Source: an uncultured Gammaproteobacteria bacterium
GTDB lineage: Bacteria; Pseudomonadota; Gammaproteobacteria; Steroidobacterales; Foliamicaceae
NCBI GenBank assembly: GCA_951828235.1
Contig: OX639965.1
Span: forward strand, 515,191 to 579,190
DNA: 64,000 nucleotides
Reading direction: 5' to 3'
Under the pieces are notes generated by a model, which was not told the DNA's origin, made no database searches, and saw only the letters and a program-made list of their open reading frames with translations. Positions 3,882 through 56,740 of this stretch are shown in pieces (positions within the stretch are counted from its first letter, which is position 1; the number at the start of each line of letters is the position of its first letter). A program made the position numbers and the translations under genes.

Positions 3882-5450
3882 CTAGTGCCGTATCACAGGT
3901 GTATCCCGCCGCCCGAGGACGGATGGCGCCAGCAGTTCATCGTACCGGCCTCGTCCAATCATCGCGCCGGGACTGCGGTCTGCAAGCGATACTACAACGA
4001 TTACCAGGGCCGCGGCCGGAATCGAGAACAGCCCCGGATAAATCCACGGGAAGGGCGCGTTCTCAAGCCCCAGGGCACCTTCCCAGACGGCCGGACTCAG
4101 CGCCAGCAACACCACCGAAACGACCATGCCCACCCAGCCGCCGATGATCAGCCCGCGTGCGCTGGCGCCGCGCCAGAACAGCGCAGCAACCAGCGCCGGC
4201 GTGTTCACGCTGGCGGCCACGGTAAAGGCGAGCGCGGTCAGATAGGCGACGTTCTGTCCCCGAAACTGAATCCCCAGCGCCACGGCCACCACGCCCAGTC
4301 CCACGACGCTGATGCGCGACGCCCGGACTTCCGTCCTGTCGTCGGCACGGCCACGCTTGAGCACGCCAGTATAGAGATCGTGCGCCAGGGCCGCAGCGGC
4401 GGCCAGCACCAATCCGCAAACCACCGCCAGCAGCGTGGCGAAGGCCACCGAAGCCATGAATCCCAGAAGCAGGTTGCCGCCGATGATCCGCGCCGCATGC
4501 ATGATCGCCATATTGGTACTGCCGATCATTCCGCCCTGCTCGTTCAGGATCTCCGTATTCCCGGCCAGCAGTACGATGATTCCGAGCCCGGTAATCCAGA
4601 GCAGCAGCGAAAAAGTCACGATGTAGCCGGTGGCGTACACCGCGGAGCGGCGGGCCTGTCTGGCGTCGGGCACCGTAAAGAAGCGCATCAACAGATGCGG
4701 CAGCCCCACCATGCCGACCAGCCCGGTCAGGACAAACGCGAAGATCGAGATCCTGTCGGGCAGGAACTGACCCGGGCTCAGCCACTCCTCGCCCCGCTGA
4801 TGCACGCGCGCCGCCGACTCCAGCAACGATAACGGACCCTCGCCCAGGTTCAGCATGAGCAGGGCAAGCAGCACCAGGATCGACATCATGAGCAATACGG
4901 CCTTGGTCATCTGCACCCAGGTGGTCGCCAGCATTCCGCCGACGCTTACATAGAGCACGGTCAGGCCACCCACCATGGCGACGGCATAGGGATAGCGGAT
5001 TCCGAACAGCACCTCGAACAGCGCGCCGCCCGCCACCATCTGCGATATCAGGTACAGGACCGCGGCCACCAGCGTCCCGGTGGCCGCCAGCACGCGGATC
5101 GAGGTTTCGCGAAAGCGTGCCGACAACACGTCCACAAAGGTATAGCTGCCCAGGTTCCGCAGCCGTTCCGCGAGCAGGCACATCAGCAGCGGGTAGCCGA
5201 CTGCCCCGCCCGTCATGTATATGAGGCCATCGTATCCGTCCGTGTAGATGACGGCGGTCACGCCCAGCAGCGTTCCGGCGGAAAGATGGTCCCCCGCGAT
5301 CGCCAGCCCGTTGCTGAAGCCGCCGATCGAGTGCGAAGCCGCATAGAACTCCGAAGATGAACGCGTCCGCCGACCCGCCTGCCAGGTGATCAACAGCGAG
5401 GCCCCGAGGATCAGGACAAACGTGAGGATGGAAGCCAGGTTAGGCGCCAT
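3882..5450 (-). CDS. Sodium:solute symporter, ActP-like
   Basis: NGLAIAGD, GGMLATTWVQ, GLPHLLMRFFTVPDARQARRS, AFATLLAVVCGL; many TM segments; preceded by DUF485. Confidence 0.88.
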   Translation of the reverse strand: MAPNLASILTFVLILGASLLITWQAGRRTRSSSEFYAASHSIGGFSNGLAIAGDHLSAGTLLGVTAVIYTDGYDGLIYMTGGAVGYPLLMCLLAERLRNLGSYTFVDVLSARFRETSIRVLAATGTLVAAVLYLISQMVAGGALFEVLFGIRYPYAVAMVGGLTVLYVSVGGMLATTWVQMTKAVLLMMSILVLLALLMLNLGEGPLSLLESAARVHQRGEEWLSPGQFLPDRISIFAFVLTGLVGMVGLPHLLMRFFTVPDARQARRSAVYATGYIVTFSLLLWITGLGIIVLLAGNTEILNEQGGMIGSTNMAIMHAARIIGGNLLLGFMASVAFATLLAVVCGLVLAAAAALAHDLYTGVLKRGRADDRTEVRASRISVVGLGVVAVALGIQFRGQNVAYLTALAFTVAASVNTPALVAALFWRGASARGLIIGGWVGMVVSVVLLALSPAVWEGALGLENAPFPWIYPGLFSIPAAALVIVVVSLADRSPGAMIGRGRYDELLAPSVLGRRDTPVIRH

Positions 5451-5763
5451 CGGGACTGTTCCAGTCGTGGCGCTGCCTGATTTGTGCGCGCAAGGGCGTC
5501 AGCCGGCGGGTACTGAGCGCAGCATAGGTGGCCGTGGCGGCGAACCAGCCGATCAGGCCCAGCACGTTCCAGACCAGCCCGACAGTAACCCAGCGGCCAG
5601 GCACAAGGCGAATGTCGAGCACTGCCGGCCAGTAGGCCATCACCACGCCCAGGCTTACGTAAAACGCCACCACGCTGCCGGCAATGGCAAAGGCATAGCG
5701 CCGCTGAAGACGGCGCAGCCGGATGAAGTCCGGGTCCTGAACGAGTTCCGCTACGGTATTCAC
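5440..5763 (-). CDS. DUF485 (YjcH-like) small membrane protein
   Basis: 107 aa with two TM segments and PDFIRLRRLQRR N-terminus; overlaps the symporter start, the usual DUF485-actP arrangement. Confidence 0.8.
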   Translation of the reverse strand: MNTVAELVQDPDFIRLRRLQRRYAFAIAGSVVAFYVSLGVVMAYWPAVLDIRLVPGRWVTVGLVWNVLGLIGWFAATATYAALSTRRLTPLRAQIRQRHDWNSPDGA

Positions 5764-5768
5764 CGTTC

Positions 5769-5820
5769 CTGGGAGAGAGGGCGTCTCGCCCTCTGGAGGT
5801 CGGGACGACCTCCCTCCCGG
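5769..5820. repeat. REP-like palindromic element, copy 1 (intergenic)
   Basis: ctgggagagagggcgtctcgccctctggaggtcgggacgacctccctcccgg; homologous to the copies at 27310, 28883 and 52245. Confidence 0.8.
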
Positions 5821-5821
5821 A

Positions 5822-6274
5822 CTACGCTTCGAGGATGCAATACAGCACGATCAGGTGGCCGTCGTGATCGAGCATGCCGATCTCGCGGCCCACGCGACCG
5901 TCGTGCGTACGCAGCGTTTCCTCCGGAAAGACATGCAGGCCTTCGGCGCGCGCGCCCTCCACGACGGCGTCGATATCGTCCACTTCCAGCACCAGCGCGT
6001 GGCTGCTCGGCAGGTTGGGCTCGGGCAGTTCCACGCCCTTGATCTCGGTCAGCGCCAGGCTGCGAACCTGATCTTTGGAACTGAGCGCGGCGAACCCGGT
6101 CGTGGCTTCCCGAGGGATCTGGAACACCGTAAACGAATACGATTCAGGGCGGTGCCCCAGGGTGAAATCCAGCTTAAAGCCAAGAATGTCGCGGTAGACG
6201 CGATAAGCGCGTTCCAGGTCGGCGACAACGAGATTGGTGCGTTGCACGCGCACCGGAAGATCACTGGTCATCAA
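5822..6274 (-). CDS. VOC/glyoxalase family protein
   Basis: RTNLVVADLERAYRVYRDILG, LVLEVDDID, MLDHDGHLIVL. Confidence 0.8.
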   Translation of the reverse strand: MMTSDLPVRVQRTNLVVADLERAYRVYRDILGFKLDFTLGHRPESYSFTVFQIPREATTGFAALSSKDQVRSLALTEIKGVELPEPNLPSSHALVLEVDDIDAVVEGARAEGLHVFPEETLRTHDGRVGREIGMLDHDGHLIVLYCILEA

Positions 6275-7917: not shown

Positions 7918-8466
7918 ATGACCGGGGAATCGTTTGATACGCATGAGGCGATACAGACACTTGAAAGGGCCGGCTGCCCCGCCGAACAAGCGGAGGCCAT
8001 GGTTGCCGTCGTGACTCAGGCCACCGCACCCACTGCACAGGTAATCAAGGATCTGGAACGCATCCGGCTCGTGGTGGAGACCAAAATGGCCACCAGGGAA
8101 GACGTAGCGGAACTGCGAACGGAGATGCACGAGGGCCTGGCGGGCCTGCGAACGGAAATGCACGAGGGCCTGGCGGGCCTGCGAACGGAAATGCACGGGG
8201 GCCTGGCGGGCCTGCGCGCCGAAAATAAGGGAGATGCGGCTGAGCTTCGGGCTGACTGGAGGATTGATCTGGCAGAGCTTCGAACGGAAACGCAGACCGG
8301 ATTTGCGGATCTCAGTGCGCGCCTGAACAGGGTCACTGAGAGCATGATTACGCGGGGCGAGCTGTATCGCGCCCTGTGGATACAGGGTGGCGTGCTGGCC
8401 ACGCTCATTCTTTCGCTTGCGGCCATTACGCTGGGATTCGCGCTATTCGTTTTGACGGGGTCCTGA
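7918..8466 (+). CDS. DUF1640/CCDC90-like coiled-coil protein with C-terminal membrane anchor
   Basis: FDTHEAIQTLERAGCPAEQAEA head, MATREDV neck, hendecad coiled coil, hydrophobic C-terminus; AGGAGG RBS before ATG 7918. Confidence 0.8.
   Translation: MTGESFDTHEAIQTLERAGCPAEQAEAMVAVVTQATAPTAQVIKDLERIRLVVETKMATREDVAELRTEMHEGLAGLRTEMHEGLAGLRTEMHGGLAGLRAENKGDAAELRADWRIDLAELRTETQTGFADLSARLNRVTESMITRGELYRALWIQGGVLATLILSLAAITLGFALFVLTGS
8113..8217 (+). repeat. 33-bp in-frame tandem repeat, 3 copies plus a partial
   Basis: ctgcgaacgga(g/a)atgcacg(a/g)gggcctggcgggc x3, encoding LRTEMH(E/G)GLAG. Confidence 0.95.
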
Positions 8467-12517: not shown

Positions 12518-13390
12518 ATGAGCGAACCCAATCACGATTACCGCGCGATCGACGCGGTCGTCAACATCTGGACGCCCGAGGCCCTGTCGCACCGGCCCGG
12601 CTGGCAGGGCGATTTCTTCGTGGGCAAGATGAAAGCGGAAAGCCCGCTGATGAGCGGACTCTCGCTGGAACAGATGATTGAGCGGCTGGACGCCGCCGGC
12701 ATCGAGCGGGCGTTCCTGATCGCGCCGCATACCGGCCAGGTGGGCCTGCCGGGCTGTTATCACCTGCCGTATGAGGTTGTGGCTCGCGCCTGCGAGAAGC
12801 ACCCCGACCGCTTCTCCGGCCTGGCGGGGATCGACCCCACCCAGGGCATGGAAGGTGTGCGCATGTTCGAGGATGCGGTGAAGAACATGGGCTTTATCGG
12901 CGCGCACCTTTACCCGCACTGGTTCGAACTCGCCCCGGACCATGCCCGCTACTACCCGTTCTACGCCAAGTGCTGCGAGCTGAACGTGCCGATACAGATG
13001 CAGGTCGGCCAGTCGATGATTTACGCCAAGGACGCGCCGCGCCGCAGCGTCGGCCGGCCGATCGCGCTGGACGCCGTGGCCTGCGACTTCCCCGAACTCA
13101 AGCTGATCGGCATTCACGTAGGCATTCCCTGGCACGAAGAGATGATCGCCATGTCGTGGAAGCACGACAATGTGTTCATCGGCTGCGACGCGCACCGGCC
13201 GAAGTACTGGCCGGACAGCTTCCGGCATTACATCAATTCGTTCGGCCAGGACAAGGTCATCTTCGGCACCGACTTTCCGGTGCTGGACTTCGAGCGCACG
13301 GTGCAGGACATCGACGCGCTCGAACTACGCCCGCGGGCGCGCCGCAAGCTGATGCGCGACAACGTCCTGCGCATCTACGGAATGGAGTGA
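12518..13390 (+). CDS. Amidohydrolase family 2 protein (paralog 1)
   Basis: RFSGLAGIDP, HLYPHW, YAKCCEL, DFPELKLIGIH, VIFGTDFP; GGAGG RBS before ATG 12518. Confidence 0.88.
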   Translation: MSEPNHDYRAIDAVVNIWTPEALSHRPGWQGDFFVGKMKAESPLMSGLSLEQMIERLDAAGIERAFLIAPHTGQVGLPGCYHLPYEVVARACEKHPDRFSGLAGIDPTQGMEGVRMFEDAVKNMGFIGAHLYPHWFELAPDHARYYPFYAKCCELNVPIQMQVGQSMIYAKDAPRRSVGRPIALDAVACDFPELKLIGIHVGIPWHEEMIAMSWKHDNVFIGCDAHRPKYWPDSFRHYINSFGQDKVIFGTDFPVLDFERTVQDIDALELRPRARRKLMRDNVLRIYGME

Positions 13391-26924: not shown

Positions 26925-28346
26925 TCATAGCGCCGTCCGGCGCCAGGTCGTACCCCCGGGGCCGTCTTCCAGGATCACGCCGCGGTCCTTGAGGACTTCG
27001 CGTATGCGGTCGGCAGCGGCATAGTCGCCGTTCGCGCGCGCGCTGGCCCGCTCGCCGATGCGTTTCTCGATTTCCCCGGCGCTCAAATCCAGCGCCGCCG
27101 CCGTAAACCACTCTTTGGGATCGCTCTGAAGAATACCCAGCAGGTAGCCGCCCGCCTGCAACGAGGCCGCGCCCGCACTGGGCTCGAGTTCGCCTGAGCG
27201 GAGTTTGCGGGCCTGAGCGGCCAGCACGCTTAGTGCCGCGGGCGTGTTGAGATCGTCCTCCAGCGCGCGGACCAGTTCCTGTGGCGGATCCGCCGCGCGA
27301 GAACGGACTCCCGGGGGCGAAGGCGTCCCGCCTTCGTGGAGGGCGGGACGCCCTCCCTCCCGGGCTTCCGCGGCGCAATCGAGCAATACGCGATACAGGC
27401 GGTCCAGCCGCTTCCGGGAGGCGGCGATCAGCTCATCGCTCCACTCCAGCGGGTCGCGGTAACGCGCGCTGAGAAGGGCCAACCGCAACACTTCGCCCGG
27501 AACTTTCTCCCGCAACTCGCGGATCGTCAGGATATTCCCCCGGGACTTGGCCATCTTCGACTTGCCCATGCGGATCATGCCGTTGTGCACCCAGTAACGG
27601 GCCAGAGGTGCGCCGTGGGCACAGCGGCTCTGGGCAATCTCGTTTTCGTGGTGCGGAAAAATCAGGTCCTGGCCGCCGCCATGAATGTCGATCGTTTCTC
27701 CCAGGTGTTCCCGCGCCATGGCCGAGCACTCCAGGTGCCAGCCGGGACGCCCGCGCCCCCAGGGGCTCTCCCAGCCGGGAAGCTCGCCGGAAGAGGGCTT
27801 CCAAAGCACGAAATCGGCCGGGTCCTCCTTGTACGGCGCAACGTCGACCCGGGCGCCGGCAAGCTGCTCGTCGCGATTACGCCCGGAAAGCTCTCCGTAC
27901 CACGCAAAAGCGCCCACCCGGAACAGCACGTGACCCTCCGCCTCGTAGGCGTGTCCCGACTCCAGCAGTTTCCCGACCAGGGCGATCATCTGCGGCACAT
28001 GTTCGGTCGCCTGCGGTTGCCGGTCCGGCGCAAGCACGCCCAGCGCGCCTGCATCTTCCCGCCAGACCCGCGTCCAGCGCTGCGCGACGGTTGCGATCGG
28101 CACGCCCTCGTCAGCGGCCGCCTGGTTGATCTTGTCGTCCACGTCCGTGATGTTGCTGGCGTAAACCAGCTCGAAGCGCCGGCGCAACAGGCGGGCCAGC
28201 ACGTCGAAGACCACTGCCGGGCGGGCGTTGCCGATATGCGCAGGCCCATAGACCGTCGGTCCGCAAACGTACATGGTTACCCGGTCCGGGTTTCCGGGAA
28301 CGAAGGGCTGGCGTTTGCCGCCCAGGGTGTTGTAGAGGCTGATCAC
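26925..28346 (-). CDS. cysS: Cysteine--tRNA ligase
   Basis: [43 protein letters not shown]; GTG start overlaps the lptE stop. Confidence 0.96.
27310..27364. repeat. REP-like palindromic element, copy 2 (in frame inside cysS)
   Basis: cccgggggcgaaggcgtcccgccttcgtggagggcgggacgccctccctcccggg; reverse complement nearly identical to the 52245 copy. Confidence 0.88.
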
Positions 28347-28935
28347 GGACCGCCGCCTGCCGCGGGAGCGGGCAGCGAGGCCAGGTCGCGCAGAATCTGC
28401 CAGGCCAGGTCTTCCGCCAGGGCATCGCGCAGGACCTCGGTCTCGCGCTCCATTCCCAGCACCCGGAACTCGTCCTGTACGCGCGTGTGGTCCACTTCCC
28501 ACTCGCGCTCGTCAATCAGCCGCTCGCCGCCCAGCCTGAGCGTGTACTTCACGCGGTAGCTGATTTCCGTGACCGTGGGCAGGTTGTTCGCGGAGATGGC
28601 CACAAGGCTTTCCTCGCTCTCGTCTTCCAGCAGGCGCAAAATCGCCACGCCTTCGCCCGGCTCGTCGTGCACGGTGACCTCGGCCAGGCGCAACTGCTCG
28701 TCCAGGGCGCGCCGAAGAGGCGTCGAACCCTGGGCGCTTTGCACCCATACGCCCGCGGCCAGCGCCGGAAAATCAAGTCGCCCCTGGAACTGAAAGCCGC
28801 AGGCTGCGAGCATGAACGACAACGCGCAGGCTACGGCGACGCGGCCTGCCAGGCAAGGCGAAGGATGGCTGATCCTGGTTTCGAGGGCGGGACGCCCTCG
28901 CTCCCGGTCGGCGATGAATGGCGCGTGATTCAGGT

Positions 28936-42330: not shown

Positions 42331-42596
42331 AGTGTGCTGTCCCATAAGTTCGTTGCCTTTCAGAGCGGGCCTGAAGCGTCAATGCAAGGCGCCGTCCGCA
42401 GGGAATACTGCCCGTATTACCCAGGGCGGCAACGCCGCAGTGGCGCTTCAGGCCCGCTCCCGTAGGGCGTGTCCCCTGCGGCGTGTGGCCGCGTTGCGGC
42501 CCTTGGCAATGGGGGCTACCATTCCCGGCGGACCGCGCCTTGCCACACGCCGCAGGGGACACGCTGAAAGGCAACGAACTTATGGGACAGCACACT
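42331..42596. mobile_element. MITE-like element with perfect 33-bp terminal inverted repeats and two internal hairpins
   Basis: agtgtgctgtcccataagttcgttgcctttcag (42331-42363) is the exact reverse complement of 42564-42596; internal IRs 42364-42378/42444-42458 and 42468-42489/42542-42563; no transposase. Confidence 0.85.
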
Positions 42597-51133: not shown

Positions 51134-52231
51134 ATGAACAGAAGAGATGTTTTGCATGCGTCGGCGATGGCGGTTTCCGCCGGCATACTCGGGAGCACGT
51201 CCAGCGAGAAGGCCGCCGCCGAAGAGGCCGGCGCGGGCAACGCCGCGCAGGACGCACCCCGTGTCCAGTCCGGCCAGGCGCTTGCGTCTCCGGAAGAATC
51301 CAACCCCCTTCAAGCGAAGATCGTCGTGTTCACGACGGTCTCGCCGGACGTGGATGCCAGCATCCGCTTCTACACTGAGGTGATCGGCATGACCCTCGCC
51401 GACGAGGGCACGCTGACGGCGGCTGCCGGCAATGCGCCCGGCGTCGGAAATGCCGGAAGGCGCTACGCGATATTGCATATGCCGGAGCCCTCCGACAGCG
51501 CGCAGGTACGGGTGCTCGAATCGCCGAGGGGGGCGGCGGCCAATCGCCCGCGGCCCGACTCCGGTCCCGGAGACCCCGGGCTGCTGGTCATGGAAGGCGT
51601 TACGCGGGACCCGGCCGAGTCCTACCATCGACTCGCGTCGGCGAACACCCCGGTCATTACGCCGCCGCGCTATTACTTTTTCCGCAACACGACCTGGCGC
51701 CGTGACATCGACGTGATGAGCTATGCCGCTTTCGGGCCGGGCGGAGAGCAGATGTTCATTACCGCCCACGTGCGCAGCGACCGGCCGGAATGGACGCTGC
51801 CGGGGCTGCATTCCGGGTTTCACAACGCCGCCATCACCAGTCTCGACCAGCGCCCGGTGGACGCGTTCTACGAGCAGGCCTTGGGACTCAGGCGCAGCTC
51901 GCAGCTGGAATGTTTCCAGCGCAACACCAACGAGCTGATCGGCGCGCCGGACGACAGCTATTTCCTGTGGGGGAACGTGGGCATCGGGGTCAGCATCGAG
52001 GTGTGGGAGTTCAAGGCGGCCAGCGGCACCCTGTATCCCACATCGCTGGACCGGACCGGGCTGGCGATGATGACTATGCGCGTCAACGATCTCGGCAAGG
52101 TCCGCGAAATGTGCGAGGCCAGCGGTATTACGCCCGTGGGCGATGGCGCCCTGCCCCTGCTCGGCAATGCCCAACCCGAGGGATTCACGCTGCGCGGCGC
52201 CGTCGGCGAACTGATCGAAGTGATCGCCTGA
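51134..52231 (+). CDS. Tat-signal VOC family protein (multi-domain)
   Basis: MNRRDVL leader; DVDASIRFYTEVIG, FYEQALG, GPGGE, GAVGELIEV. Confidence 0.8.
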   Translation: MNRRDVLHASAMAVSAGILGSTSSEKAAAEEAGAGNAAQDAPRVQSGQALASPEESNPLQAKIVVFTTVSPDVDASIRFYTEVIGMTLADEGTLTAAAGNAPGVGNAGRRYAILHMPEPSDSAQVRVLESPRGAAANRPRPDSGPGDPGLLVMEGVTRDPAESYHRLASANTPVITPPRYYFFRNTTWRRDIDVMSYAAFGPGGEQMFITAHVRSDRPEWTLPGLHSGFHNAAITSLDQRPVDAFYEQALGLRRSSQLECFQRNTNELIGAPDDSYFLWGNVGIGVSIEVWEFKAASGTLYPTSLDRTGLAMMTMRVNDLGKVREMCEASGITPVGDGALPLLGNAQPEGFTLRGAVGELIEVIA

Positions 52232-52244
52232 ACATGCATCCCAT

Positions 52245-52302
52245 CCCCGGGGAGGGAAGGCGTCCCGCCTTCCACGAGGGCGGGACGCCTTCCCTTCCGG
52301 GG
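52245..52302. repeat. REP-like palindromic element, copy 4 (intergenic)
   Basis: 16-bp perfect stem gggaaggcgtcccgcc / ggcgggacgccttccc. Confidence 0.88.
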
Positions 52303-52322: not shown

Positions 52323-53624
52323 GTGACTGAATCAACGTTTGCCGCGTCGCAACGCTATCGGCGCTACGTCCTGGGGCTGCTGCTGGCGGTGATGACGCTG
52401 AACTACGCCGATCGCTACGTGATCGGCATCCTGCTGCCGCAGATCAAGTCCGACCTGGCGTTGACCGACACCCAGATCGGCTTCATCACCGGCGCCGCTT
52501 TCACGGTTTTCTACGCGCTGCTGGGGGTCCCGATCGCAAGCCTTGCGGACCGCCGCTCTCGCCGGAAGATCATTGCCGGGGCGCTGGCGCTTTGGAGCCT
52601 GATGACCTGCCTGTGCGGGCTGGCCCGGTCGTTTGTGCAACTGGCCGTGTTCCGTGTGCTTGTGGGCGTTGGCGAAGCAGGCTGCACGCCGCCGTCCCAT
52701 TCGCTCATATCCGACTATTTCGCTCCCCGCGAGCGTGCCATGGCCATGGCCGTGCTCGGCCTGGGCTCGTCTCTGGGGGTGTTCCTGGCTTTCCTGATCG
52801 GCGGCTGGATCACCGACGCCTATGGCTGGCGGGTCACGCTGGTGTCCTTCGGCGCCCCGGGGGTATTCATTGCGCTGGTCGTGTATTTCACACTGCGCGA
52901 CCCGCCGCGCGGCCACAGCGACGGCCTGGAAGTGGCGGAAGAGGCCCCGCGGATGTACCCGGCTTTCCGCGGCCTGTGGGCAAAGGGAACGTTCCGCTAC
53001 ATGGTCCTGGGCGGCAGCCTCTACGGCATGGTCAGCACCGCCCTGCTTGCCTGGTTGCCTTCGTTCTATACCCGCACCCACGGACTCGAAGTCGCCGCCG
53101 TCGGCACCTGGCTGGCGTTTACGAAGGCGCTGCCTCACGCCGCCGGCACCCTGCTGGGCGGCCTGCTGGCCAGCCGGCTTGCAAAGTTCGGAACAAAGCC
53201 GCCGATCTATCTTTGCGCCGGCGTACAGCTTGTGGCCGCGCCGTTCTACGCACTGGTTCTGCTGGTTCCCGATCCCACGGCTGCGCTGCTTTGGCTCATC
53301 GTGCCGGCCTGCGTGGGCGTGATGCAGGGGCCGGTGCTGTTCGCCACCATACAGGGCGTCGCCGACGTTCGCACCCGGGCCGTCGCCTCGGCGCTCATGA
53401 TCCTGATCATCAACCTGATCGCGGGCGTGATCGGACCGCAGGCGGTAGGCGTAGCCAGCGATTATCTGGCGGGATCACTGGGCGTGGATTCCCTGGGCGT
53501 AGCGCTGCTGATCGTGTGCGTGGCATGCAGCCTCGGCTCGGCCGGCCTGTTCTACCTGGCTTCCCGCAGCATCGAGCAGGACCTGCAGTATTCGCGGCCA
53601 ACGGGCATCAGAAAAGTGCTTTGA
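52323..53624 (+). CDS. MFS transporter (spinster-like)
   Basis: LNYADRY, LADRRSRRK, GVGEAGCTPPSHSLISDYF. Confidence 0.9.
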   Translation: MTESTFAASQRYRRYVLGLLLAVMTLNYADRYVIGILLPQIKSDLALTDTQIGFITGAAFTVFYALLGVPIASLADRRSRRKIIAGALALWSLMTCLCGLARSFVQLAVFRVLVGVGEAGCTPPSHSLISDYFAPRERAMAMAVLGLGSSLGVFLAFLIGGWITDAYGWRVTLVSFGAPGVFIALVVYFTLRDPPRGHSDGLEVAEEAPRMYPAFRGLWAKGTFRYMVLGGSLYGMVSTALLAWLPSFYTRTHGLEVAAVGTWLAFTKALPHAAGTLLGGLLASRLAKFGTKPPIYLCAGVQLVAAPFYALVLLVPDPTAALLWLIVPACVGVMQGPVLFATIQGVADVRTRAVASALMILIINLIAGVIGPQAVGVASDYLAGSLGVDSLGVALLIVCVACSLGSAGLFYLASRSIEQDLQYSRPTGIRKVL

Positions 53625-55879: not shown

Positions 55880-56740
55880 ATGTCCGGCATCATCGACATC
55901 GTCTGCAATCTCTATACGCCGCAGACGGTGGCCGAGGGCCGCACCGGCCTGGACGACACATTCAGCGACCAGGTGCGCATGCCCGAGGACATGCGCGGCG
56001 GGGTTTCCATCGCCGACTACCTCGGCCGCATGGACCGCGCCGGCATCGAGCGGTCGCTGCTGGTTGCCGTGCGGGCCGGGCAGATGGGCCTGCAGGACTC
56101 TTTCGAGGTGCCGTACGAATACGTCAGCGAGGTGTGCGAGAAGTATCCGGCGCGCTTCTCGGGGCTGGCGGGGATCGACCCCACGCGCGGCATGGCGGGG
56201 CTGAAGGACCTCCAATACGCCGTTAACGAACTGGGTTTCGTCGGCGCGCACTTCTACCCCCACTGGTTCGCGATGCCGCCCGACGCGGCCCGGATGTATC
56301 CCTATTACGCCAAGTGCTGCGAACTCGATATTCCGATCATGATGCAGGTCGGTCAGAACCTCGTCTACACGCGCTCGCGGCGCCTGCCTTCGGTGGGCCG
56401 GCCGATCGCCCTTGACCCGGTCGCCATCGATTTTCCCGATCTCAAGCTGATCGGCATTCACATCGGCGTGCCGTGGACCGAGGAAATGATCGCCATGTGC
56501 TGGAAGCACGACAACGTGTATACCGCCGGCGACGCTTACGCGCCCCGCTACTGGCCTGCGCCTTTCGTCCACTACCTGAATTCCTACGGGCGCGACAAGG
56601 TGATGTTCGGCACCGACTGGCCGGTCATCGACCCCGAGCGGGCGGTGGCCGAAGTCGACGAACTTGGGCTCAAGCCGGAATCCAGACAGCGGCTGCTGCG
56701 CGACAACGCGCTCGGCGTCTTCGGGCTCGCCACTCAATGA
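55880..56740 (+). CDS. Amidohydrolase family 2 protein (paralog 2)
   Basis: RFSGLAGIDP, HFYPHWF, YAKCCEL, VMFGTDWP; closely resembles 12518-13390. Confidence 0.88.
   Translation: MSGIIDIVCNLYTPQTVAEGRTGLDDTFSDQVRMPEDMRGGVSIADYLGRMDRAGIERSLLVAVRAGQMGLQDSFEVPYEYVSEVCEKYPARFSGLAGIDPTRGMAGLKDLQYAVNELGFVGAHFYPHWFAMPPDAARMYPYYAKCCELDIPIMMQVGQNLVYTRSRRLPSVGRPIALDPVAIDFPDLKLIGIHIGVPWTEEMIAMCWKHDNVYTAGDAYAPRYWPAPFVHYLNSYGRDKVMFGTDWPVIDPERAVAEVDELGLKPESRQRLLRDNALGVFGLATQ

Follow-up and report, generated by a model that had tools for sequence, protein, structure and literature searches.

A repetitive extragenic palindromic doublet carried in frame within cysS of an uncultured gammaproteobacterial genus

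How does an essential enzyme come to carry, inside its own reading frame, a palindromic repeat whose other copies lie mainly between genes? The question is raised by cysS, a gene on the minus strand (26925..28346) of a 64,000-nucleotide stretch of DNA from an uncultured gammaproteobacterium. This stretch, hereafter the window, corresponds to positions 515191–579190 of contig C1 of the genome studied (G000; one contig, 3.11 Mb, 63.5% G+C, 94.7% complete), and the genus is known here from metagenome-assembled genomes only. The repeat, at 27311..27367, is a copy of a genus-restricted family of repetitive extragenic palindromic (REP) doublets. A first-pass annotation of the window had already placed a REP palindrome at this point of cysS, translated in frame as about 18 residues ahead of the ALEDDLNTP helix, and had described it as a copy of an intergenic repeat. 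Our analysis bears out the place, the frame and the relation to the intergenic copy, and redraws the limits and composition of the element. We consider it highly probable that the element is a tolerated selfish or neutral passenger, a REP copy in the CysS linker that is read through and adds a disordered loop, and not an adaptation.

The palindrome and the protein that contains it

Two inverted units, each of about 25 nt, make up the element, a doublet resembling a REP doublet forming a hairpin (REPIN). It covers 57 nt of the minus-strand gene, exactly the gap that separates it from the empty alleles of three independent assemblies (L031, L032 and L033), and supplies 19 codons for CysS residues 327–345; the translation given in the first-pass annotation was correct as written, and its length is refined to this number. 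The ends of the element are uncertain by 3 nt, on account of a CCG/CCG microhomology at 27311–27313 and 27368–27370. The palindrome as a whole extends from 27304 to 27370, with two 32-nt arms (27304–27335 and 27339–27370) that are 81% complementary and flank a 3-nt loop. Its core, at 27322..27352, comprises two 14-nt inverted units, GGCGTCCCGCCTTC and GAGGGCGGGACGCC, around this loop, and each core unit is itself a small hairpin. Folded as the mRNA strand, the cysS copy forms a hairpin of −54 kcal/mol (z = −6.6).

The 31-nt core pattern, with up to three mismatches allowed, matches the window only at 27322–27352 and 52259–52289, where 100 shuffles give an expectation of 0.00. The second match belongs to an intergenic doublet at 52247..52301, the arms of which are 89% complementary and which lies between open reading frames (ORFs) ending at 52231 and starting at 52323. 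The cysS copy is 85% identical to this copy (52247–52301/52308) in direct comparison and 84% identical as its reverse complement, two similar values being what a palindrome leads one to expect.

The host protein, a cysteine–tRNA ligase of 473 amino acids, matches the Pfam families tRNA-synt_1e (E = 1.1e-110), DALR_2 and CysS_C, and aligns with E. coli CysRS (1LI5) at E = 6.5e-115. Translation likely starts at the GTG at 28346, which overlaps the stop codon of lptE by 4 nt, as in annotated relatives. The insert is in frame, free of stop codons and wholly within the minus-strand ORF 26925..28502, and the genome holds a single strong cysS match. The HIGH/KMSKS-region, catalytic and zinc-ligand columns are invariant across 101 CysS homologues.

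The 101-sequence alignment was used to build an AlphaFold2 model, which has a mean predicted local distance difference test score (pLDDT) of 81 and a predicted template modeling score (pTM) of 0.77, and superposes on the E. coli CysRS-tRNA complex (1U0B) with template modeling (TM) scores of 0.78/0.80. Only three segments of the model fall below a pLDDT of 50, one of which, residues 331–350, lies between the confidently modeled helices 304–330 and 356–364. Across the same site, the alignment with E. coli CysRS contains gaps of 14 and 4 residues. From the E. coli structure, we take this site to be the junction of the stem-contact fold and the helical-bundle domain. The insert is thus predicted by the model to sit in a disordered inter-helix loop at a domain junction.

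CysS varies in length at a second site as well, around residues 417–420 (window ∼27087–27098, minus strand), at which a clade that includes G001, G002, G020 and G021 (P0049, P0055, P0057, P0060, P0065 and others) has 20–35 extra residues and G000 has none. In addition, the P0011 protein has a 14-residue tandem duplication, AADRIRDVRRRAEQ, near its C terminus.

The REP family, its transposase and its copies in other genes

A hidden Markov model (HMM) made from three window copies and run against G000 with nhmmer yields 126 strand-hits, which merge into 74 loci; 46 of these are at least 49 nt long. The consensus of the 74 loci is CCCGGGAGCGAAGGCGTCTCGCCTTC-GTG-GAGGGCGGGACGCCCTCCCTCCCGGG, in which two inverted units of ∼25 nt each form a small stem-loop and jointly form one long hairpin. 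GTAG is absent from the unit, and one strand carries CGTC (GGCGTCCC), inside the stem-loop and not at the unit end. The 17-mer GAGGGCGGGACGCCCTC, with at most one mismatch, occurs 77 times in G000 and 17–575 times each in 14 of 21 congeners, as against 0–3 times in the other seven and 0–1 times in 19 genomes from other genera of the order. A control search with the reversed 17-mer finds essentially none.

Five of the 22 genomes of the genus (G001, G002, G011, G014 and G020) have one match each to the Y1 transposase family PF01797. The ORF at locus L036 of G002 (C1, around 2460129–2460359) reaches 32.8 bits, the cut-off being 23, and carries HVHV and YIHHNP motifs. It lies between two REP tandem arrays of 11 and 6 units (17 in all), in opposite orientation and with a period of 29 nt. 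REP clusters are also present at the transposase loci L035, L037 and L038 (from G014, G011 and G020, respectively), such that the same REP flanks the Y1 gene at all four loci examined. The one indirect sign that a REP-associated tyrosine transposase (RAYT) cleaves or mobilizes this REP is the presence of the gene in both of the REP-richest genomes, G002 and G020. We also note that the longest ORF of the L036 RAYT-type gene begins within the array, and hence has REP-encoded GRPALE at its start.

The genome under study gives no match to PF01797, and a tblastn search of it with the G002 protein, for a RAYT gene or remnant, finds nothing better than E = 0.004. Taken together, the likely mobilizer of the family is a single-copy RAYT-type Y1 HUH transposase, lost from G000 and surviving in some relatives. 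Judged by sequence, the label REP is right in the strict sense: the repeats belong to a RAYT-associated REP family that appears orphaned in G000.

Where, then, do the other copies of the family lie? We screened the 74 loci for spanning ORFs that keep the G+C signature of coding sequence on both sides of the repeat, and searched the resulting proteins against Pfam. Only five loci (7%) lie inside ORFs with this signature on both sides and with Pfam domains, the other 69 being classed by codon-position G+C and not by annotation; the family is in this sense mainly intergenic. Besides cysS, the in-frame copies are in ychF, birA, tsaB and the gene for an E2 acyltransferase. The ychF copy encodes an 18-residue peptide between the GTPase and C-terminal domains, and that in birA a 21-residue peptide between the ligase and C-terminal domains. 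In tsaB, a REP peptide of at least 13 residues lies just past the matched TsaD-family region, and in the E2 acyltransferase a half copy (PGERASRPQS) lies in the linker before the catalytic domain.

Comparison with congeners bears out three of these copies. The birA insert is a clean one of 24 amino acids (72 nt), found only in G000 and G021 among the congeners compared and bounded by an imperfect 8-nt repeat (CCTCCACG and GTTCCTCG); birA of G012 has a separate single-unit insert of 12 amino acids, a few bases off the G000 site. The tsaB insert is found only in G000, G021 and G013 among the congeners compared. The ychF loop is a hot spot across the genus, REP-rich and variable in length. In G011 (L144/L146) it contains four tandem GLPPWEG units in frame, reading GLPPWEGGLPPWEGGLPPWEGGLPPWEGGLPALHEGKMPSLPGE, and in G002 (L133) the REP units are also in tandem within the YchF frame, forming a 26-residue stretch. 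The repeat is read in two frames or more, and GLPPWEG may represent a third. This use of multiple frames argues against selection for one particular peptide.

Alleles of the CysS linker and their history

We gathered 8000 CysS homologues and computed a tree of 101 sequences with the linker columns removed. The linker of REP-free homologues offers no similar segment of equal length: it is 10–18 amino acids long in outgroups, with unrelated sequences, and 12–17 amino acids long in basal members of the genus (15–16 for those on the tree), with no trace of a REP and in genomes that lack the REP family. In G000 it measures 32 amino acids.

The closest comparison is provided by cluster P0006, whose CysS (454 amino acids) is 96% identical in the alignment and lacks exactly the 19 REP-encoded residues. 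In the DNA (one NCBI and two ENA assemblies, the three empty alleles introduced above), the difference is one clean 57-nt gap corresponding to window 27311–27367, edged on the coding strand by CGG...CGG microhomology. This is the clean indel that the first-pass annotation predicted, with the caveat that the empty allele appears to be the derived one. P0006 falls inside a strongly supported clade of six rows (support 99), the five others of which are filled, and is itself sister to the window's own pair (support 90). Its linker, at 13 amino acids, is also four codons shorter than the 17-amino-acid alleles that have no recognizable REP. Because it is nested among filled alleles, is four codons shorter and has microhomology at its junction, we read the P0006 allele, from its sequence, as a secondary deletion of the hairpin, and reject it as an ancestral empty site.

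A wider clade of 53 rows, which includes the window, holds a graded series of linkers: full doublets of 32 amino acids, right halves of 18–24, 1.5-copy forms of 38–43, and degenerate forms. It also holds the 17-amino-acid alleles, which were classed as having no REP and whose junction DNA still reads CCCGGGAGGAAGGG, a 14-nt string that resembles a REP terminus. All length variants of the linker, in over 50 alleles, differ by whole codons and contain no stop. Within the window's own clade, the protein identity of the insert is 68–79%, compared with 94–96% for the rest of CysS, and this faster change fits relaxed constraint.

In another clade, G020 (L012) has a full doublet at the same place and of a different sequence variant. 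One extra base in this doublet (PRERGRPRPRRGRDALVPS) shifts the frame midway, such that half of it is read in another frame, and the sister lineages of G020 have REP-free linkers of 16 amino acids. From its sequence, the G020 doublet looks like a separate insertion. On our reading, the alleles go back to one or more old insertions, remodeled time and again in frame, and to at least one hit besides; more gains may have taken place, given the closeness of the cysS copies to the family consensus. A shared loop and arm variant was considered as proof of a single origin and dropped, since the variant is the family consensus and is present in the birA copy as well.

These observations are consistent with a model in which a REP copy landed, in frame and stop-free, in the variable linker that leads from the final helix of the catalytic and stem-contact part of CysS into the opening helix of the helical-bundle (DALR) domain. 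A RAYT-type transposase would have been the agent of insertion. The ribosome would read through the REP to give a Gly/Pro-rich, disordered surface loop of ∼19 residues, which the enzyme may tolerate. The hairpin-prone DNA could later have been remodeled by in-frame slippage between short direct repeats, giving rise to half deletions, 1.5-copy duplications and a short remnant; a single lineage very close to this one would have lost the whole element together with four codons.

Several points weigh against this reading. G000, a single-contig genome, has no RAYT at its stated completeness, and mobilization is therefore argued from relatives only. The 17-amino-acid alleles with CCCGGGAGGAAGGG could be remnants or could preserve an ancestral REP-like target, so one insertion with many deletions is not fully separable from repeated insertion. 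Exchange of cysS between lineages may have occurred: G021 is the species nearest to G000 by BirA (95%), YchF (89%) and TsaB (83%), and its CysS, which lacks a linker REP, is only 85% identical and groups with another clade. Translation of the REP segment is itself deduced from the ORF. One might anticipate a cost from a hairpin of such stability midway through an essential ORF, and yet against 42 full-length intergenic copies (median −36.6 kcal/mol) the cysS copy ranks fourth most stable and the ychF copy second. Finally, lineages whose cysS genes diverge at 14–17% of sites show only 2–3 differences in the 45 nt of the REP core, and such low divergence is not what strict neutrality predicts.

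Of the alternatives, the one that survives best is that the linker is a preferred target that received several independent insertions, in which case the 17-amino-acid alleles would be true empty sites. The G020 doublet, with its extra base and its REP-free sisters, speaks for this, as do the loops of BirA and YchF, which have been hit more than once at slightly different positions. Seventeen residues is also the basal length of the linker, and the closeness of the cysS copies to the family consensus deprives their shared sequence of force as proof of common descent. Set against this, the full copies of the 53-row clade agree in junctions, orientation and frame; the half, 1.5-copy and remnant forms intergrade; the 17-amino-acid alleles retain the string that resembles a REP terminus; and most genomes of the clade, G000 included, are without the transposase. 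On balance we regard multiple insertion as the general explanation of these alleles as unlikely.

The low divergence of the core bears on a second alternative, that the hairpin is kept in cysS and ychF for a role as nucleic acid, such as a ribosome pause, an effect on mRNA half-life or the binding of a REP-binding factor, with the peptide as a by-product. The strength of the hairpin and its z score are in keeping with such a role, and only three (for cysS) and one (for ychF) of the 42 intergenic copies are more stable. Between the lineages in which the core differs at 2–3 of 45 nt, 0–2 of 15 third codon positions in the core are changed, compared with ∼30% elsewhere in the gene, and the insert sits at a domain junction. 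However, the nearest relatives, L034 and L121, carry 2–5 substitutions, and those of L034 are uncompensated and weaken the stem. No compensatory changes were found among the orthologous cysS copies, the traced L034 changes being unpaired when pairing was assigned manually to the predicted fold. In many lineages one half or the whole of the element has gone, P0006 having lost it entirely. The pairwise tests of core conservation give P values of ∼0.01–0.09 for pairs that are not independent, and a high bias toward G or C at third codon positions (GC3) by itself lowers change at those positions. Unrelated genes, moreover, are hit by the family in more than one reading frame. The comparison of substitution rates between insert and gene is mixed and weak, and we claim no constraint from it. 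We consider a nucleic-acid role improbable, and hold just as little confidence in the broader proposal that REP hairpins in essential genes are kept at the nucleotide level, acting in the mRNA or DNA as programmed ribosome pauses at domain boundaries or as factor-binding sites, such that the repeated colonization of the cysS, ychF and birA loops would be favored and not just tolerated.

Two further alternatives concern whether the segment exists as protein, or at all. That cysS is decaying, or that translational bypass skips the segment or it is cut out of the RNA, would suit so stable a hairpin; it is very improbable, given a single-copy cysS with an intact ORF, the invariant catalytic and zinc-binding columns, the more than 50 stop-free alleles whose lengths vary by multiples of three, and a linker that varies in length even without REPs. 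We know of no mechanism that excises a bare 57-nt hairpin from RNA. An assembly artefact, which palindromes can in principle cause and for which we found no other support, or a chance Gly/Pro-rich linker that resembles the repeat, can be dismissed almost entirely: the same insert recurs with lineage-specific substitutions in independent short- and long-read assemblies from NCBI and ENA, and the 85% DNA identity to the other copy extends over 55 nt where no chance matches are expected.

Other repeats in the window and relation to known systems

Two further members of the REP family lie in the window. A diverged doublet at 5767..5821 (D4) is 64% identical over 55 nt, rising to 92% in its right half, and is the top nhmmer match (54 bits). 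It is probably intergenic: it sits between minus-strand ORFs at 5440..5763 and 5822..6274, and a plus-strand ORF that spans it loses the codon-position G+C signature downstream of the repeat. A single unit, or half copy, at 28883..28907 (D7; 96% identity) lies at the leuS-lptE junction, within the longest lptE ORF (as RERGRPALE) and upstream of the lipoprotein signal peptide. In the relative L034, the called start of lptE is downstream of the corresponding REP; the true start in the window probably lies downstream of the unit too, and that copy would then be extragenic.

The window also contains repeats of other kinds. A 266-bp element at 42331–42596 has perfect 33-bp terminal inverted repeats (AGTGTGCTGTCCCATAAGTTCGTTGCCTTTCAG). 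When up to four mismatches are allowed, the genome contains 11 forward and 13 reverse copies of this terminus, and nine form pairs ∼233 bp apart. By its sequence, the element appears to represent a second repeat family, similar to MITEs (miniature transposable elements with inverted repeats) and unrelated to the REP. At 8098–8224, a 33-nt unit (GAGGGCCTGGCGGGCCTGCGAACGGAAATGCAC) is repeated 3–4 times in tandem with 82–100% identity. Segments 12687–13316 and 56031–56660, 43,344 nt apart, share 71–84% identity over several blocks, the longest of 268 nt, and are probably paralogous genes.

REPINs and RAYT transposases are reportedly described, in the work of Bertels and Rainey, with REPINs as extragenic elements. 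The family described here shares with that system the two inverted units in one hairpin, the tens to hundreds of copies per genome and the single-copy, REP-flanked Y1 gene. It differs in that five of its copies lie within genes as in-frame and presumably translated segments, in that the repeats persist in G000 without a RAYT, and in the tandem arrays of 29-nt period around the RAYT of G002. In structure, the element corresponds to the definition of a REP/REPIN family, one whose RAYT, to judge from the genomes compared, survives in relatives only.

REPs within genes have been reported before. Di Nocera, De Gregorio and Rocco (2013; PMC3733652) described GTAG/CGTC REPs, often dimers encoding 20–30 amino acids, that lie wholly within ORFs for known proteins, including tRNA synthetase genes of Xanthomonas oryzae, “E. 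lithoralis” (as printed) and “S. alaskensis,” and considered them potentially neutral, housed in flexible linkers or loops. The cysS element agrees with these in size, dimer form, type of host gene and interpretation. It differs in REP family and taxon, having no terminal GTAG and having its CGTC inside the stem-loop. What it adds is an allele-level history and a structure-based placement; intragenic REPs are already known, and the cysS case is a new, well-documented example of them.

The first-pass annotation had likened the insert to Rickettsia palindromic elements (RPEs), and the comparison holds as an analogy of behavior, not as a statement of family membership. RPEs, the classic and extreme example, are reviewed (PMC10969869) as selfish palindromes that lie in frame in unrelated housekeeping genes and add a peptide at sites that the fold can accommodate, with relatives differing in which copies they carry; they are ∼150 bp long, form ten Rickettsia-specific families, and in three families have nearly half of their copies inside ORFs. 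Like them, the present palindromes are in frame and stop-free in unrelated genes (cysS, ychF, birA, tsaB and the E2 acyltransferase gene), and occupy fold-compatible places, a predicted disordered loop in CysS and elsewhere positions between or just past matched Pfam regions, as judged for these others from Pfam limits. By description they are set apart from RPEs by their length of 55–57 nt, their gammaproteobacterial host, an intragenic share of 5 in 74 (7%) and a transposase identifiable in relatives.

Small non-autonomous repeats such as enterobacterial repetitive intergenic consensus (ERIC) sequences, Correia elements and similar MITEs also fuse occasionally in frame with host ORFs (PMC10969869). 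MITEs, however, derive from insertion sequences, carry terminal inverted repeats together with target-site duplications and tend to be longer, whereas the REPs described here show no clear duplication, just the 3-nt CGG/CGG microhomology at cysS and the imperfect 8-nt repeat at birA.

Considered together, these data indicate that Rickettsia-style palindromes in essential proteins also occur with RAYT-associated REP doublets, in an unrelated gammaproteobacterial genus. The alleles form an unusually complete series at one site, from full, half, 1.5-copy and tandem-array forms to remnants and a clean deletion, and document the gain, remodeling and loss of inserts with the frame kept. In annotation, a strictly extragenic position should not be assumed for REPs. 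Phylogenies and domain calls can be led astray by the repeat-derived segments present in alignments of these genomes' housekeeping proteins. The pair of filled and empty cysS alleles, in turn, constitutes a natural experiment on the cost, to an aminoacyl-tRNA synthetase, of a hairpin of −54 kcal/mol and a 19-residue loop.

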